Shown piece by piece: positions 51,245-60,577 of a stretch of 64,000 nucleotides of DNA. The position numbers and the translations under genes were made by a program. The notes beneath the pieces were generated by a model. The model worked only from the letters and a program-made list of their open reading frames with translations. It ran no database searches and was not told where the DNA came from. Source of the DNA: an uncultured Candidatus Saccharibacteria bacterium. Its GTDB lineage: Bacteria > Patescibacteriota > Minisyncoccia > Phycocordibacterales > GWA1-40-21. The stretch spans positions 62,767 through 126,766 of the forward strand of contig CAZMNX010000002.1 of NCBI GenBank assembly GCA_964567825.1, written 5' to 3'. Numbering within the stretch: the stretch's first letter is position 1; the number at the start of each line of letters is the position of its first letter.

Positions 51245-52153
51245 CTAGTTTTGCAGAGAAATCAAGCTCACGGCCTTAGTAATAAACGGCAAAATATCGC
51301 CGTAAGTTTTAATATCTTGGAGATCAGTTAATTTAAACCAGCGAGCTTCGTCGAGACCGCCGTTATCTTTCTCTAGAGCTAATTCTTTATAATCAGCCTT
51401 AGCTAAAAAGTAAGCTACTTGTTTACGAATTTTACCTTTCTCGGGATGATTGGCGACATACTCATTGCGACCAATTTCATCCAGCACCTGAACGTCCAGG
51501 CCTATTTCTTCTTTTATTTCTCTCTTAGTACCCTCTTGCTCATTTTCCTCAGCTTCTAATCGCCCCTTGGATAAAGTCCAATAGCCAAAAACATCATGAA
51601 CTAGAGCCAGATAATAGTGGCCATCATTTTGAGCATAAACGACGGCTCCGCCCAATCTTTCAATTGGCATTTGCTCATAAGGAATATCGGCAATAGCTTT
51701 TTTCTTTTTCGGCGAAACAGCATCTTTATCTGGCTCACCTAATTCTTTATAAACCGAGCCCAAAACTCCGTTCACAAATTTACTGCTCTTTTCACCACCA
51801 TAGTTTTTGGATAATTCGATTGCTTCATTTATAGCCACCTTAGCTGGTACTTCTTTAGAATCAGCAAAAAGTAATTCGTATAAACCGATGCGCAAAATAT
51901 TTCGATCAATAATAGAAATTTTATCTAATGGCCAATCGGGTGCCGCCTTTTCAATCACTAAATCAATTTCTTTTCTTTTCTGTAAAACACCGTTTAAGAG
52001 AGAGTTAACAAAATTATTATCAATAACATCGTTGGCAAATTCCGCCGCATTACGCAAAAGGATCTCTTCAGATTCGTTTTCTGGAGTATTTCGAAAATCA
52101 AGCTCAAAGAGAGATTGAAGGACTATGGATCTTGCAATGTGCCTATTTGCCAT
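51245..52153 (-). CDS. nusB: NusB antitermination factor fused to a C-terminal NUDIX hydrolase domain
   Basis: N-terminal ~140 aa NusB (RSIVLQSLFELDF...VPAKVAINEAIELSK) then Nudix box GRLEAEENEQEGTKREIKEEIGL. Confidence 0.75.
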   Translation of the reverse strand: MANRHIARSIVLQSLFELDFRNTPENESEEILLRNAAEFANDVIDNNFVNSLLNGVLQKRKEIDLVIEKAAPDWPLDKISIIDRNILRIGLYELLFADSKEVPAKVAINEAIELSKNYGGEKSSKFVNGVLGSVYKELGEPDKDAVSPKKKKAIADIPYEQMPIERLGGAVVYAQNDGHYYLALVHDVFGYWTLSKGRLEAEENEQEGTKREIKEEIGLDVQVLDEIGRNEYVANHPEKGKIRKQVAYFLAKADYKELALEKDNGGLDEARWFKLTDLQDIKTYGDILPFITKAVSLISLQN

Positions 52154-52604: not shown

Positions 52605-53240
52605 TTAATCCATGAACTGAATCGGGCAATTTCCGCGACCCATCATGGCCTGCTGGCTGTGCGGATTCCGGAGAATCTCTCCGTACCGGCGCTGCACCGG
52701 CTCGAACTGTCTCGCCAGATGCTTCAGCACCCGGAAGAGAACGGCCCGATGAAAAGGCTGTCCGCGCTCGAGCATCCGCTGCCAGAGCTCGCCTGCCTCC
52801 ACAAACTCCGGAACACCCAAGAGCTCATCACCCTTTTCCCACTTCGGCTGCTTGCGCAGGCGCGAGAGACTCTCCGGGCTCAGCTTCATAACGAACACGC
52901 ACTTGTCGTGCCATTCCGCCTCCTTGTCGGCATCGCCAGGGACCCGACTCACCAGGGACGGCAGCGGTTCGCCAGCTGCATCGCGCGGACCGAGCGCTTG
53001 AATGTCGAAACCCTCCGGATTGTCCGGGGTCTCGCACAACTCACGCACGACACCGTTAGCCGCCGTCATCCAGCGGGTCTCGCCCGGTTCTCCGCCCTCC
53101 GTCGGGAATTTCCACGAACTGAATGGCTGACGGCCCGGACGATGCTTCGTATACACGAAAGCGATCATTTCGATCTCGCCGGGATTCTTACCCTTACGGA
53201 TGACCACCATGGTGGCCGCATGACTGATCTTCTCGCTCAT
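52605..53240 (-). CDS. NUDIX-like fold protein (degenerate Nudix box), GC-rich cassette 7
   Basis: WKFPTEGGEPGETRWMTAANGVVRELCE resembles W.FPGG.E.GE...AA.RE..EE with an insertion; SD GGAG 7 nt before ATG; ~62% GC; plus-strand overlapping ORF rejected. Confidence 0.4.
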   Translation of the reverse strand: MSEKISHAATMVVIRKGKNPGEIEMIAFVYTKHRPGRQPFSSWKFPTEGGEPGETRWMTAANGVVRELCETPDNPEGFDIQALGPRDAAGEPLPSLVSRVPGDADKEAEWHDKCVFVMKLSPESLSRLRKQPKWEKGDELLGVPEFVEAGELWQRMLERGQPFHRAVLFRVLKHLARQFEPVQRRYGEILRNPHSQQAMMGRGNCPIQFMD

Positions 53241-55081: not shown

Positions 55082-55753
55082 CTATTGGTTTTTTCTCCAC
55101 TCCTCGATCTTTTTATGATTACCCGACAAAAGCACGGGTGGCACTTTATATTTCTTGCCTTTATAAATTAAGACCTCTGGGCGGGTGTACATTTCCGAAC
55201 TGGCAACTCGTTCTTCCTCGCGTGAAGCAAAATTACCGAGCACCCCTTCAATCTGCCGCGCTACGCAGTCGGCGATAATCATGGCTGGTAATTCCCCGCC
55301 GGTCAGCACAAAAGGTCCCACCGAAATTTGTTCGGCTTTGAAAATTTTAATTACACGAGAATCAACTCCTTCATATCGTCCGCAAATTATAATAATATCA
55401 TTATACTTTTTTGAAATATTTTTAGCATAAACTGTATCAAACTGTTTACCCGACGGAGACAGAAAAATAACTTTTGCTTTATTTTTAATTTTAACCTTCC
55501 TTAAAGCCGCTTCAATTGCTTTAATCATCGGCTCCGCTTGCATGACCATGCCCGGACCACCACCGTACGGTTTATCGTCCACCCGCAAATATGGTTTGGC
55601 ATTTTTCTTTTGACCAGCGGTTGGCTTTACATAGTCTCGAGGGTTATAAAAATTAAATTTAATCTTCCCCTCCTTCTGCGCCCGCGCCAAAATCGACTCA
55701 TTTAGATATGAGTCAAACATCTCGGGAAATAAAGTGATGATGTGAAAATTCAT
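55082..55753 (-). CDS. trmD: tRNA (guanine37-N1)-methyltransferase
   Basis: MNFHIITLFPEMFDSYLNESILARAQ SPOUT/TrmD signature. Confidence 0.9.
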   Translation of the reverse strand: MNFHIITLFPEMFDSYLNESILARAQKEGKIKFNFYNPRDYVKPTAGQKKNAKPYLRVDDKPYGGGPGMVMQAEPMIKAIEAALRKVKIKNKAKVIFLSPSGKQFDTVYAKNISKKYNDIIIICGRYEGVDSRVIKIFKAEQISVGPFVLTGGELPAMIIADCVARQIEGVLGNFASREEERVASSEMYTRPEVLIYKGKKYKVPPVLLSGNHKKIEEWRKNQ

Positions 55754-55789: not shown

Positions 55790-56239
55790 CTATTTATTCT
55801 CCCAAGCGGAAACAACTGCCAAGGATTCGGCTTCCAATTCCGGAATCTGAACGATTTCAATCGGCCGAAGAAGACTCTGATTAATATCCGAAGTGTTATA
55901 GTGTCCGCCATAATATTCTGGTGATACTTTTTCTTTAGCACAAGCAAAAACTATTCTAGAAATTCCTGCCCACATCGCCGCGCCAAAACACATGAGGCAC
56001 GGTTGCATCGAAGCATACAAAGTAGCACCAGTTAAATTTCCTGAATTAATATTTTTAAAAGCATCACGGATAGAAACCATTTCACCGTGGCAGGTTGAAT
56101 CTTTGAGCAAGTTACCGACAGAAATTCCCGCACCGATAATTTTCCCGTTTTGCACCACAATCGCTCCCGCCGGAAAGCCACCAGCCGCCACCGATTCCCT
56201 GGCTTTCTCTATTGCTTTGAGTAGAAATTCTCGGTCCAT
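55790..56239 (-). CDS. CMP/dCMP-type zinc deaminase (tRNA adenosine deaminase TadA-like)
   Basis: HGEMVSIRDA (HxE) and PCLMCFGA (PCxxC) zinc-binding motifs. Confidence 0.75.
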   Translation of the reverse strand: MDREFLLKAIEKARESVAAGGFPAGAIVVQNGKIIGAGISVGNLLKDSTCHGEMVSIRDAFKNINSGNLTGATLYASMQPCLMCFGAAMWAGISRIVFACAKEKVSPEYYGGHYNTSDINQSLLRPIEIVQIPELEAESLAVVSAWENK

Positions 56240-56312
56240 GATATATCAAATCTATCAAACTGAGCTTGGTTAGTAAAGTGACTTTACCCCTCCACCCTAG
56301 ACACTATATATT

Positions 56313-57032
56313 TTATCTAATTATCACCGACTTAAAAAAGTTTTCTTGAAAATTGGTTTGTTTTCTTATTTCTTCATCGGAAATATTATCTATTTCTTTT
56401 GGAATAATCACCAATTTATCATCGTCGTCATTGGTTCTATGAATTACGGCCACACATTTGCCTTTATAATTTTCAATAGGTTCATCAATTTCTAAAACAT
56501 AAGCGTCTAACTCTTCCCCATCCGGCGATAAGGTATTCGGAACAAAGCCATAGTTAGAATCATAAATAAAATTATGTTTAGGATGTTTTGAACCCTTCGG
56601 ACGGTCAATTTTAATTTCAACAATTTTTCCCAAGTAAGATTCGGCTTTATTTATGACTCCGGCAATCTCAAATATTAATTTACTTACCTCGTCATCTTTC
56701 TTCCAAACAACAATACTCTTTCTAAATATTTCAGCCTGAAATAAATCTGGCTTACCACCAGCAATTTCTCTTAACTTCTCAATAGATCTAATTACAATAT
56801 TATATTCCTTCCCATTATATTGATAAACATATTCTCCTTTTGTATACTTTTTTTCCACATCGATCGGTAATATAAAAAGAAGATCAATATCGGAATCTGA
56901 CCGATTAGTGCCCTTGGCAACCGAACCATACAAAATAATTGCTTTTAGGTAACCTTCAATGTCTTGGTACCACAGCTCGCTTATGATTCTTTTTTTTAGA
57001 AAATCCTTTATTAATTCTTGATACTTTTCCAC
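56313..57032 (-). CDS. Pol-beta-superfamily nucleotidyltransferase fused to an inorganic-pyrophosphatase-like C-terminal domain
   Basis: N-terminal LYGSVAKGTNRSDSDIDLLFILP (GS...DxD NTase motif). The C-terminus NYGFVPNTLSPDGEELDAYVLEI...KLVIIP parallels the family I PPase motif YPxNYGYIxxTLxxDGDPxDVLV, with partial substitution of the Asp cluster. Confidence 0.6.
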   Translation of the reverse strand: MEKYQELIKDFLKKRIISELWYQDIEGYLKAIILYGSVAKGTNRSDSDIDLLFILPIDVEKKYTKGEYVYQYNGKEYNIVIRSIEKLREIAGGKPDLFQAEIFRKSIVVWKKDDEVSKLIFEIAGVINKAESYLGKIVEIKIDRPKGSKHPKHNFIYDSNYGFVPNTLSPDGEELDAYVLEIDEPIENYKGKCVAVIHRTNDDDDKLVIIPKEIDNISDEEIRKQTNFQENFFKSVIIR

Positions 57033-57082
57033 CTAAAAAGTATAGCACAAACTAACTGAGTTAATGAAAAGCAGAGTGATTT

Positions 57083-57721
57083 CTACTTTAGTACTTCAAT
57101 AATAGGATGTCCCAAATGAATACCTCCAGTTAACTCATCTTTAAGAATCTCAAGATTTCCTTTTAGATCTTTACGTTCTGATCTGTTGAGAAATAATTTG
57201 TTACCTCTTTTCTCAAACACAATTTGAGGGGCACCATCGTTTTCTCTTACAAGATTAAGTTCGAAAGGACTAACTTCCAGTCCGTATTCAGTTACTGTCA
57301 CTACCTCACCTGGACGATACTCACCATCATTTTCTTTCAACAACTCTACAAGCCTATCTACTTCTCCTTGAGAAACAAAAAACAATTCTCTCATAATCGG
57401 TTGAAATTTAAAATGGTTACCCTCCCCGCTCATGAATTCATGTTGATCGGGTATCATCTTTGCTCTTAAGGTTTGTCCGGTTACTAGTTGAAAGTAAGTT
57501 GAACCATTAGCGGTCTTAAATACTCGGTTAAATCTTTCCTTTTCTAATGAAAGTTGAGTAACAAATTCTTCGCGTATTTTTGAAATCGCTTTTACGACCT
57601 CGCCATTATCTAGAACAGTATATTCATTTTCACGTAAATTATCCAGCCTCAAAGAAAGTTCCTCCAAACTCACGGGCGCCAGCTCAACTGTTTCTTGCCG
57701 ATTACTACTTGAGTTATCCAT
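57083..57721 (-). CDS. hypothetical protein (212 aa)
   Basis: ORF-track start at 57772 would overlap tRNA-Tyr; internal ATG at 57721 (MDNSSSNRQ...) avoids this; no motif. Confidence 0.4.
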   Translation of the reverse strand: MDNSSSNRQETVELAPVSLEELSLRLDNLRENEYTVLDNGEVVKAISKIREEFVTQLSLEKERFNRVFKTANGSTYFQLVTGQTLRAKMIPDQHEFMSGEGNHFKFQPIMRELFFVSQGEVDRLVELLKENDGEYRPGEVVTVTEYGLEVSPFELNLVRENDGAPQIVFEKRGNKLFLNRSERKDLKGNLEILKDELTGGIHLGHPIIEVLK

Positions 57722-57745
57722 AATATAAAAAATTTTCTTATTAAG

Positions 57746-57831
57746 TGGTGCGCCGAGTTGGACTCGAACCAACGATGCCCATTGGGCCGCAGATTTACAG
57801 TCTGCTGGAATAGCCGCTATCCGATCGGCGC
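57746..57831 (-). tRNA. tRNA-Tyr (anticodon GTA), type II with long variable arm, CCA encoded
   Basis: GCGCCGA acceptor, anticodon stem GCAGA/TCTGC loop CTGTAAA, variable arm GCCCAATGGGC, T-loop TTCGAGT. Confidence 0.8.
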
Positions 57832-57871: not shown

Positions 57872-60577
57872 TCAAGCGCTCCCTTTCCCCGCCTTGGTTA
57901 GGGCGGGGTGGTGAGTCTGCGAACCGGGGCGGTTGTTCTTCCCTTTCACCTCAAAAGTAAACTCCTTATTTTTTTGATCAACATTGATAGTGCCGCCGGC
58001 CGAAACGCCGCGAGAGATCATCAGTGATGCCACGGGATTGAGAATTTTATTTTGAATCAAGCGCTTTAAAGGACGAGCGCCGTATTGTGGATTGTAGCCT
58101 TCTTTAGCTAGGTACGAAACCACTTCTTTACTAATCACCAATTTAATTTCTTTTTCTTCTAGGCGTTTACGGACAATATCAAGCTGAATATTCACGATTT
58201 CCGCCACCGCTTTTTCACTCAAAATATCAAAGATAATAACATCGTCCAAACGATTCAAGAATTCCGGACGGAAATGCTCTTTGAGGGCGCGAGTCACTTT
58301 ATCCTTCACATCTTCATATTCAGCTTTTTTGGTTTTATCCATACTGAAACCAATTTCTTCCATTTTATCGATAAACTGTGCTCCGATATTTGAGGTCAAA
58401 ATAATTACTGTATTTTTAAAGTTAACCACGCGGCCTTTAGCATCCGTTAAATGACCACTGTCCAAAACTTGAAGCAAAATATTAAAGACTTCTGGATGAG
58501 CTTTTTCGATTTCATCAAAAAGAATAACTGAGTATGGGCGATGTCGCACCATCTCGGTCAAATTTCCCCCTTCTTCATAACCAACATAGCCAGGTGGTGA
58601 GCCAATCAGTTTAGAAACAGCGTGGCGTTCCATAAATTCCGACATATCCACGCGAATAAGCGCTTTATCATCATCAAACATAAATTCGGCTAAAGCTTTG
58701 GTTAATTCTGTTTTACCGACGCCAGTTGGACCCAAGAAAATAAATGAGCCAATCGGTCTATTTGGATCGGCGATGCCAGCGCGAGAACGCTTAATAGTGT
58801 CTGAAATTTTCTGCACGGCTTCGTCTTGACCAATAATTCTTTTCTTCAGCTCCTCTTCCATTCGATTAAGTTTTTCGGCTTCGGCTTCGAGCATTCTTTT
58901 TACCGGTACACCAGTCCAACGCGAAACAATATCGGCAATATCTTCTTCGCCAATCTCCTCCTTGAGCATACGGCGTGAACTTTGCAATTGCTTTAGGCGC
59001 TTAATCTTGGTAGCCAAATCTTTTTCCATTTGAGGAATTTTACCGTAACGAATTTCCGCGGCCTTCGCTAAATCTACCTTCACTTCAGCCGCCTCGGCTT
59101 CGATCTTGGCCTGCTCCAAGCCTTTTTTCAGAGCTTTAATTTCCACAATTGTCTCCTTCTCGTTTTTCCATTTTAATTCGATTTCGGAAGTTTTTTCTTT
59201 GAAATCCGCAATCTCTTTCTCAATTATTTTCACGCGCGCTTTAGCTTTTTTGCCGCCAGCGGCTGCTTCTTTTTTCAAAGCCTCACGTTCGATTTCCAAA
59301 CGTAAAACTTTACGATGGGTTTCTTCCAAAATCGGTGGCATATTTTCCAAAGAAATTTTCAAAGCCGATGAAGCCTCGTCGATCAAATCGACGGCTTTGT
59401 CTGGCAAAAAACGATCCGTAATATAGCGTGAACTTAAATTTACCGCCGAGATAATCGCATCATCAGTAATGCGCACACCGTGATAGAGTTCATATTTATC
59501 TTTCAAACCACGTAAAATTGCAATGGCATCTTCGATCGAAGGCTCACTTACGTAAACAGACTGAAAACGACGAGTTAAGGCTGGATCTTTTTCTATCTTC
59601 TGAAATTCCTTGGTGGTCGTAGCACCAATGGTTCTAAATTCCCCACGGGACAAAGCCGGCTTGAGCATATTCGAAGCATCAAGCGACCCTTCGGCCGAAC
59701 CCGCCCCGACAATGGTGTGGATTTCATCAATAAAAACAATAATTTTACCTTCCGATTTTTCTATTTCTTTTATAATATTTTTTAAACGCTCCTCAAATTC
59801 ACCGCGATATTTTGTTCCGGCAATCAGAAGCCCCATATCCAGTGAAACTAATTCTTTATCTTTAAGTGATTCGGGCACATCACCCTGAGACATTCTTAGG
59901 GCCAAGCCTTCGACAATAGCAGTTTTACCCACCCCGGCTTCACCAATCAAAATCGGATTATTTTTTGTGCGGCGCGATAAAATTTGAATGATGCGAGAAA
60001 TTTCATTATCCCGACCAATAACCGGGTCAAGTTTATTCTCCTTGGCCATCTTTGTTAGGTTCCTGGTATATTTAGAAATCGCCCGTAACTTTTTAACGGC
60101 TGGGACCTCACCATTATTGTTAGTTTTAAATTCAGCTAAAACTTTAATAATCTTCACTCGATCAATCTTGAATTTAGCGAGAATTTCTCGAGCCGGGCTT
60201 GGTACATCTAAAACACCGATAAATAAGTGCTCGGTGGAAATAAAATCGTCTTTCAATTCAGCTGCCACCTTGCCGGAAGCCTCAATTACCTGAGCCAGCT
60301 CGGGTGTTAAATAAATCTGCATCGCCGGCGAAGAAATATTAGCCTGGGTAGTCGTACCGTCAATAATATCTAGAAGTGAATCGGTTAGCAGTATGACGTC
60401 AATTTCTAGGCGATCAAGAATAGACGAAACCATGCTTTCCTCTTGCATAATTAAGGCGATCAAAAGATGCACCGGATTCACATGATTTTGGCCGCGCTCA
60501 ATGGCTAATTCATGTGCTCGGCGAATGACTTCCTTGGCCTTAGTTGTAAAATTATTGAACGGAGGCATAACTGACAA
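57872..60577 (-). CDS. clpB: ATP-dependent chaperone ClpB
   Basis: Clp N-domain, two AAA+ modules ([15 protein letters not shown]; [15 protein letters not shown]) separated by a long coiled-coil M-domain. Confidence 0.9.

Follow-up and report, generated by a model that had tools for sequence, protein, structure and literature searches.

The gene at positions 56313..57032 on the minus strand of a 64-kb window, a stretch of 64,000 nucleotides from contig CAZMNX010000002.1 of an uncultured Candidatus Saccharibacteria bacterium, encodes a minimal Pol-beta-type nucleotidyltransferase (NTase) fused to a short family I inorganic pyrophosphatase (PPase) domain. The gene is complete, with a GTG start, 239 codons and a stop. 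Both domains were recognised by curated profiles and by predicted fold, and the motifs that define them are intact. The fusion is rare, recurs elsewhere and has no HEPN partner. Its product is proposed to be an accessory bifunctional enzyme in which the PPase half removes the pyrophosphate (PPi) released by nucleotidyl transfer, a proposal that we consider about evenly poised between right and wrong.

Identification of the two domains

A first-pass annotation of the window had suggested this fusion and had also raised the doubt that it was a frameshift-joined artefact of two genes. Translation of 56313..57032 gave one continuous frame with zero internal stops and zero frameshifts. An independent Logan assembly contig (L001, 1869 nt) was 100% identical to window positions 55909..57777, and public protein collections hold an identical protein (P0001), for which databases already label both Pfam domains. 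A frameshift or assembly artefact was therefore ruled out and the fusion is genuine. The motifs quoted in the annotation were all found in the translation, namely YGSVAKGTNRSDSDIDLLFILP at residues 35-56, NYGFVPNTLSPDGEELDAY at residues 160-178 and IHRTNDDDDKLVIIP at residues 197-211.

The N-terminal half (residues 1-128; 56649..57032, minus strand) comprises N-terminal helices, the NTase core and a C-terminal helix. Two Pfam profiles matched within residues 20-115 above their gathering scores, NTP_transf_2 (PF01909; 40.2 bits against 21) and Polbeta (PF18765; 36.3 bits against 26.9). The active-site motif YGSVAKGTNRSDSDIDLLFILP (56865..56930, minus) holds both G36-S37 and D48-x-D50 intact, which bears out the proposed assignment to the minimal Pol-beta NTases. 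For the C-terminal half (residues 130-239; 56316..56645, minus), the Pfam, AlphaFold and Foldseek results agreed on a family I PPase domain that lacks the N-terminal hairpin, here called the mini-InPase. The Pyrophosphatase profile (PF00719) matched residues 154-232 with 34.7 bits against a gathering score of 23.5, a partial match covering profile positions 31-111 of 153, and 34 of the 35 fusion relatives matched the same profile. When the protein was compared with PDB sequences by phmmer, the top 21 matches were all family I inorganic pyrophosphatases, the best being 4xel (E 2.4e-6).

The AlphaFold model of the full-length protein (predicted local distance difference test, pLDDT, 91.4; predicted template modelling score, pTM, 0.62) showed an alpha/beta NTase domain at residues 1-128 and a beta-barrel with a helix at residues 137-239. 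In Foldseek comparisons of this model, the N half matched the aminoglycoside nucleotidyltransferase (ANT) ANT(4') (6un8/1kny) and HalB (9dbj), and the C half matched family I PPases. Modelled alone, residues 130-239 gave a pLDDT of 94.3 and a pTM of 0.88. The model has the OB-like beta-barrel of the family I PPases, and its top 50 PDB fold matches were exclusively members of that family, with query-normalised TM scores of 0.55-0.71. The PPase assignment made from the sequence was thereby confirmed by both profile and fold, with the metal-binding residues largely kept.

Residue correspondences were taken from an hhalign comparison of a 36-sequence alignment of the module with the E. coli PPase (identical to 1FAJ) and from phmmer alignments. 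Residues 143-153 (56574..56606, minus) read DRPKGSKHPKH, in which D143-R144 corresponds to E. coli D42-R43 (phmmer alignment to 5tea) and is followed by a clade-specific basic insert with K149, H150, K152 and H153. Y157 corresponds to Y51. The segment NYGFVPNTLSPDGEELDAY (56499..56555, minus) carries N160-Y161-G162 for N54-Y55-G56, then D171 for D65, E173 for D67 and D176 for D70. The second acidic cluster lies in IHRTNDDDDKLVIIP (56400..56444, minus), where D204 corresponds to D102 and K206 to K104; either N201 or D202 corresponds to D97, the exact equivalent being ambiguous because the loop is two residues shorter. Across 194 domains these aligned positions were conserved at 96-100%, except for N201 at 85%; D143, R144 and H150 reached 99-100% and K152 reached 95%. 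The acidic cluster had been described as partly substituted. This held for the D67 position, a conservative change from Asp to Glu that is found in 96% of the clade, but the equivalents of D65, D70, D97 and D102 are kept, so that the five-residue metal-binding cluster is present with Glu at D67. Further residues are invariant within this clade, namely H150 and K152 in the conserved SKHPKH insert, H198-R199, Q229-E230 and R239.

The PPase half is a member of the family I PPase superfamily and a non-canonical one. With the canonical enzymes (E. coli Ppa, 1FAJ/1INO; M. tuberculosis Rv3628, 4z70) it shares the fold and the NYG motif, and with E. coli Ppa also the D65/D70/D97/D102 cluster, R43, Y51, Y55 and K104. 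Unlike them, it has 110 residues in place of 160-180 and is fused to another enzyme; the SKHPKH insert and H198-R199 are additional to the E. coli protein. The retained metal-binding core argues for a putative active phosphoanhydride hydrolase, whereas the rebuilt phosphate-binding periphery would leave room for a substrate other than PPi.

For the NTase half, residues 1-127 shared 45-70% identity with 97 proteins. Nearly all of them are stand-alone 'predicted nucleotidyltransferases' of 126-140 residues from the candidate phyla radiation (CPR; Moranbacteria, Paceibacterota and Staskawiczbacteria) and from DPANN archaea, and identity to such stand-alone NTases reached 60-70%. G36, S37, S47, D48, D50 and P56 were invariant in 119 family members, and the family invariants present in the window protein extend to F11, W21, Y35-G36-S37, K40, S47-D48-x-D50, P56, E60, G66-E67-Y68, N78, V80, R82-S83 and E85. 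At the sequence level, the best match of the family profile was 9xbd_E, an uncharacterised NTase-domain protein (E 6.8e-7), followed by kanamycin NTase, MNT, ANT(3'')(9), LinB, HalB and MntA, mostly at motif level; YGSVAKGTNRSDSDIDLLFILP aligned with the GS...DxD of 9xbd_E, kanamycin NTase and MNT. The window NTase shares the Pol-beta core and the GS and DxD motifs with MntA, HalB and ANT(4'), the last two of which are its fold matches. Unlike these, it belongs to a conserved CPR/DPANN family of its own that has E60, T64, G66-E67-Y68, N78, R82-S83 and E85 as extra invariants. Only the NTase core aligned to 1kny/6un8, and a PPase domain follows this core where ANT(4') has a second helical domain. 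Members of the family were also found fused to NUDIX (P0223), HIT (P0268), a CxxCxxCC domain (P0096) and a GrpB fragment (P0186) in metagenomic proteins, and the partners InPase, NUDIX and HIT are the sole current clue to the role of this CPR/DPANN family.

Relatives and origin of the fusion

The same pairing was found in other genomes, as the annotation had asked, but it is rare. In a collection of 5.8 billion clustered proteins, a 242-residue NTase-InPase protein, 54-62% identical to the window protein, accounted for about 20 clusters; this is a Saccharibacteria clade (P0002-P0020 and locus L005). Within 1.84 billion representatives at 50% identity, a single one (P0008) covered both halves. 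The full fusion was present in one of the 80 best module-encoding loci of the at least 508 detected in GTDB species representatives, namely L005 of Saccharibacteria.

The window protein is not simply a member of this clade. Its N half was 61-64% identical to unfused NTases in one comparison, and 63-70% to the closest relatives in another, compared with 43-57% to the 242-residue clade; its C half was 80% identical to unfused InPases, whereas members of the clade reached 56-66%. Neighbour-joining trees, built on short sequences and carrying no support values, placed the window protein outside the clade for both domains, its InPase grouping with P0021, P0022, P0023 and L006 and its NTase with P0121 and P0122. 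That both halves are closer to unfused proteins than to the clade points to a second, independent fusion, and the NTase-InPase fusion probably arose at least twice. An ancestral fusion followed by several fissions would be a less favoured account of the same sequences. A metagenomic protein of 248 residues (P0017) has the reverse order, with the InPase at residues 5-114 and the NTase at residues 123-248; its 75% identity to the Saccharibacteria fusion L005 suggests a permuted derivative.

The short PPase module on its own is far more widespread. The C half of the window protein shared 56-80% identity with more than 1000 proteins, and module-encoding loci numbered at least 508 among the 185,579 GTDB species representatives (one genome per species), a lower bound obtained from a set that excludes the source genome. 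The bacterial carriers are Patescibacteria (Paceibacterota, Saccharibacteria, Gracilibacteria and others), Clostridia, gut Alphaproteobacteria and Bacilli, and the archaeal carriers are Woesearchaeota and Methanosarcinales, so that the module is scattered patchily over phyla, at 55-80% identity. Of the 80 best loci, about 55 encode it as a stand-alone protein of 111-138 residues. P0021 and P0022, two stand-alone proteins, are 80% identical to the window C half. Plasmid-borne copies annotated as 'inorganic diphosphatase' were found in C. acetobutylicum (pSOL1), Priestia megaterium, Listeria and Phaeobacter. Three phage records matched the module at about 40% identity, and fold matches in BFVD were weak (E of at least 4e-3); a phage origin was dismissed on these grounds. 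In an alphaproteobacterial metagenome-assembled genome (RGIG6619; L015, 5995..7314), the InPase open reading frame (ORF) has an in-frame stop inside the matched region, which could reflect a pseudogene, a sequencing error or recoding.

The module fuses on either side to unrelated domains. In the 35 fusions scanned, the partners were NUDIX (12), AAA_33/CPT/zeta-type kinases (6), glyoxalase (4), Pol-beta NTase (3), GrpB (2) and Peptidase_S51 (2), with C39 and YbaK also seen; a CYTH match in the P0023 fusion was sub-threshold. The 144 immediate neighbours of InPase genes in about 75 genomes were led, by a wide margin, by NUDIX (19), followed by radical SAM (6), S66 (4), GNAT (4) and S51 (3), all raw counts without a background model and small apart from NUDIX. 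The Saccharibacteria fusions lie in tight same-strand strings, in which genes overlap by a few bases, with CYTH, GNAT-NUDIX, NUDIX, APH, Maf, a Lactamase_B family protein, Peptidase_C39_2 and Peptidase_S51. Genes for NUDIX, GNAT, S51 and GrpB proteins occur close to that of P0023, the nearest InPase relative. On the P. megaterium plasmid NZ_CP071471.1 (L094, 3220..5292), the order is peptidase E, InPase and GNAT. This company of Peptidase S51, mini-InPase, GNAT and NUDIX recurs on Bacillales plasmids and in several CPR lineages (L094; L091, 2528..4252; L002; L004), which hints at a mobile functional gene set.

A conserved gene pair of unfused NTase and InPase was sought and not found.

Possible roles of the fusion protein

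We infer that each half is active, that PPi is the substrate of the PPase half and that the halves are coupled. In the proposed sequence of events, the N-terminal NTase would move a nucleoside monophosphate from a nucleoside triphosphate onto an acceptor and release PPi. The C-terminal mini-PPase, binding divalent metal through its retained Asp/Glu cluster, would then hydrolyse this PPi in cis, which would relieve product inhibition and pyrophosphorolysis and pull the transfer forward. The proposal rests on the intact cores of both halves, on the repeated joining of the same two families in both orders and on the strong bias of the fusion partners and neighbours towards PPi-producing enzymes (NUDIX, Maf, CYTH, GrpB and NTase). 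It also has a precedent in the ATP sulfurylase-inorganic pyrophosphatase fusions of stramenopiles and haptophytes, which were read as driving forward an unfavourable reaction that releases PPi (Patron et al. 2008; PMC2275785). Removal of PPi on behalf of NTases and polymerases is, besides, one of the roles that Iyer et al. 2017 (PMC5512222) suggested for the InPase clade. In the ATP sulfurylase fusions too, a PPi-releasing adenylyl-transfer enzyme is covalently joined to a PPase; unlike the window protein, those proteins are eukaryotic, have a nucleotidyltransferase of a different fold and use sulfate as the acceptor. An accessory status is argued from composition and distribution. The gene sits among housekeeping genes (trmD, a tadA-like gene and clpB), yet its composition deviates, with a G+C content of 31.7% in both halves alike against 41.1% for the window, within the lowest 3.7% of 720-nt segments of the 64 kb. 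To this low G+C content are added the patchy distribution of the module and its occurrence on plasmids of Priestia, Listeria and Clostridium acetobutylicum.

Several observations weigh against removal of PPi in cis. The module has no counterpart of E. coli residues 1-37, the stretch with E20, K29 and E31. In the C-terminal helix, aligned by eye from the sequences and not with an alignment tool, Y141 is replaced by an invariant Phe (F233) and no conserved residue stands in place of K142. From the phosphate-binding set of E. coli Ppa (K29, R43, Y55, K104, Y141, K142 and E20/E31), the module has R144, Y161 and K206. Its own invariants (H150, K152, H198, R199, Q229, E230 and R239) mean that the substrate of the PPase half could differ from PPi, and the score against the NCBIfam equivalog for inorganic diphosphatase (NF002317) was 27.9 bits against a cut-off of 200. 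Several InPase partners release no PPi (P-loop kinases, glyoxalase, S51, C39 and YbaK). The pTM of only 0.62 for the full-length model gives no defined interdomain geometry for channelling. The unfused families also live apart: an NTase of this family was present in the flanks of none of the 79 stand-alone or otherwise fused InPase loci, and an InPase beside none of the stand-alone NTases examined, so that coupling of the two is optional. Finally, a literature search found no experimental paper on either the NTase family or the short PPase clade.

The same divergent residues underlie a tentative alternative that deserves some credence, in which the mini-InPase cleaves a phosphoanhydride in a nucleotide-like molecule (a nucleotide antibiotic, an aminoacyl-nucleotide, a triphosphate or a nucleotide signal) and not free PPi, as part of a detoxification or nucleotide-processing set. 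The NTase half would then modify the same or a related small molecule, in the manner of ANT-like drug nucleotidylation. The idea was raised for InPase domains by Iyer et al. (PMC5512222). It agrees with invariants missing from canonical PPases, with the absence of K29, E31 and K142, and with the recurrent company, across distant lineages, of NUDIX, GNAT, Peptidase_S51, Peptidase_C39_2, S66, GrpB, CYTH, APH, Maf and Lactamase_B; the trio of peptidase E, InPase and GNAT is shared with the P. megaterium plasmid. Fusions of the module to CPT/zeta-type kinases, glyoxalase/bleomycin-resistance domains, S51 and C39, and of the NTase family to NUDIX and HIT, point the same way. In fold, the N half is matched best by ANT(4'), with a profile alignment to it that extends beyond GS/DxD. 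However, the neighbour counts beyond NUDIX are small and without a background model, every NCBIfam ANT model scored far under its cut-off (the best at 18.7 bits against 340), and the N half has no counterpart of the second, substrate-binding domain of ANT(4'). The window gene lies among housekeeping genes, outside any such island, and its metal cluster matches that of a PPi hydrolase exactly. A broader version, to which we give slightly less credence, is that the module serves as the phosphoanhydride cleaver, not a PPi scavenger, of a widespread mobile set of small enzymes (NUDIX, GNAT, S51/S66/C39 peptidases, HIT, CYTH, GrpB, small kinases and NTases) in CPR, DPANN, gut Clostridia and plasmids. 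Such a set might build or break down small molecules conjugated to nucleotides, such as aminoacyl-nucleotide or nucleotide antibiotics, or nucleotide signals, and the NTase-InPase protein would process a compound of this kind in two steps.

An unlikely explanation is that the fusion carries no mechanistic meaning, the module being a general PPi scavenger, possibly the main soluble PPase of a cell with a reduced genome, that was joined to an adjoining small gene by loss of a stop codon, as may happen where genes are closely packed. This would suit a module that stands alone in about 55 of the 80 best species-representative loci, that fuses on either side to unrelated domains and that occurs in arrays of slightly overlapping genes; a search of the 64-kb window, the part of the source genome that was covered, found no second PPase. 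Set against this, the same NTase family was joined at least twice, once in permuted order, and the partners are strongly biased towards nucleotide and PPi-producing enzymes; a housekeeping role also sits poorly with a module found in at least 508 of the 185,579 species representatives and plasmid-borne in bacteria with larger genomes, a pattern that argues for an accessory gene. A role of the N half as the MNT-type antitoxin in a type VII HEPN-MNT toxin-antitoxin or defence module (MntA/HalB-like), with the PPase half aiding adenylylation of a partner protein, is highly improbable. The best NCBIfam matches were indeed MntA_antitoxin (36.4 bits) and HalB (26.7 bits), with motif-level PADLOC matches to PDC-S09, PDC-M05A and CD-NTase models, and one stand-alone relative lies just downstream of a SMODS/DncV-like gene cluster. 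However, these scores are far under the cut-offs (60 bits for MntA_antitoxin, NF047752; 190 bits for HalB), and the window NTase is below all NCBIfam family cut-offs. The 229-residue ORF directly upstream of the fusion gene has neither a HEPN Pfam match nor an Rx4-6H motif, nor a homologue in any related locus, and the window NTase, unlike MntA and HalB, lacks a HEPN or HalA partner. The annotation had remarked that a HEPN partner is missing, and this was confirmed at the locus and beside stand-alone NTase relatives in five genomic contexts. With the partner absent and the NCBIfam scores sub-threshold, the HEPN-MNT toxin-antitoxin assignment was dismissed, as was membership of a defence system, for which PADLOC and PHROGs gave generic NTase-motif matches only.

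In the Moranbacteria genome GW2011_GWC2_37_8 (L086/L087, 1..3402), a stand-alone NTase of the family was observed about 240 bp downstream of a four-gene string that opens with a SMODS/DncV-like_NTFase/AGS_C gene, resembling the cyclases of CBASS (cyclic-oligonucleotide-based antiphage signalling system).

The annotation had not recognised the architecture as a described one. In part this did not stand, as the short PPase module and its fusions to nucleotide enzymes were already reported. Iyer, Burroughs, Anand, de Souza and Aravind (2017, J Bacteriol; PMC5512222) described hairpin-less InPase domains in phage polyvalent proteins by computation, reported related copies joined to or next to NUDIX, GNAT and TmrB, and proposed that these domains either act on a nucleotide-like substrate or clear PPi for NTases and polymerases. 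The window module fits that description: it is a family I barrel without the N-terminal beta-hairpin, starting at the D143-R144 strand, it is promiscuous with NUDIX, GNAT and P-loop kinases, and NUDIX is its top partner and neighbour. The match is one of description. Unlike the phage InPases, the window module is cellular (CPR) and of a mostly stand-alone kind, with weak similarity to the phage versions, and a fusion to a minimal Pol-beta NTase is not named in the text consulted. Beyond Iyer et al. 2017, no NTase-PPase or NUDIX-PPase enzyme was found described in the searchable literature, so the NTase pairing itself appears to be new. Both domain families, the short InPase clade with its promiscuity, and the fusion of a PPase to a PPi-releasing enzyme are already known, and the protein founds no new category. 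The pairing with the CPR/DPANN minimal NTase, its apparent recurrence and experiments on a PPase of about 110 residues appear to be undescribed.

The short PPase module, found in at least 508 species of bacterial and archaeal phyla, is unusually highly conserved. To our knowledge, if it is an active PPase, its size of about 110 residues would be smaller than that of any characterised soluble PPase. A natural NTase-PPase fusion would allow a clean test of whether removal of PPi in cis speeds nucleotidyl transfer, and could serve as a compact design for enzymatic nucleotide chemistry.

Genomic setting and other features of the window

The fusion gene belongs to a run of genes on the minus strand. 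In the order of transcription, these are clpB (57872..60577), the gene for tRNA-Tyr (57746..57831), the 229-residue ORF (57083..57772), the fusion gene, a tadA-like deaminase gene (55790..56239) and trmD (55082..55753). The annotation had placed the gene between tadA-like and tRNA-Tyr/clpB; this was right for the tadA-like side, but the upstream neighbour is the previously unannotated 229-residue ORF, beyond which lies the tRNA gene. This ORF had zero Pfam, PADLOC or PHROG matches and zero homologues in any of the related loci fetched, and a role as a functional partner was dismissed for lack of a homologue in those loci. Its listed TTG start overlaps the tRNA-Tyr gene, so the true start is probably the ATG at about 57721.

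Just upstream of the GTG start of the fusion gene, the minus strand at 57033..57060 reads TGCTATACTTTTTAG. An extended -10-like box (TGnTATACT) lies about 6 nt before the start codon, and a clear Shine-Dalgarno sequence was not seen; judged from these letters, the transcript may be leaderless or near-leaderless. The box was not among the results of the promoter scan.

Two further genes of the minus strand stood out elsewhere in the window. An ORF of 211 residues (52605..53240), between the gene for ribosomal protein L32 and rnhB, lies in a stretch of 54-59% G+C within the window of about 41% G+C. Its similarity to NUDIX stayed under the gathering score (16.4 bits, threshold 21.1), and Rfam gave no match; by its composition, it looks like a foreign insertion. 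At 51245..52153, a protein of 302 residues has an N-terminal NusB match (123.6 bits) and a C-terminal NUDIX match (49 bits), and is read as a putative, unusual NusB-NUDIX fusion.

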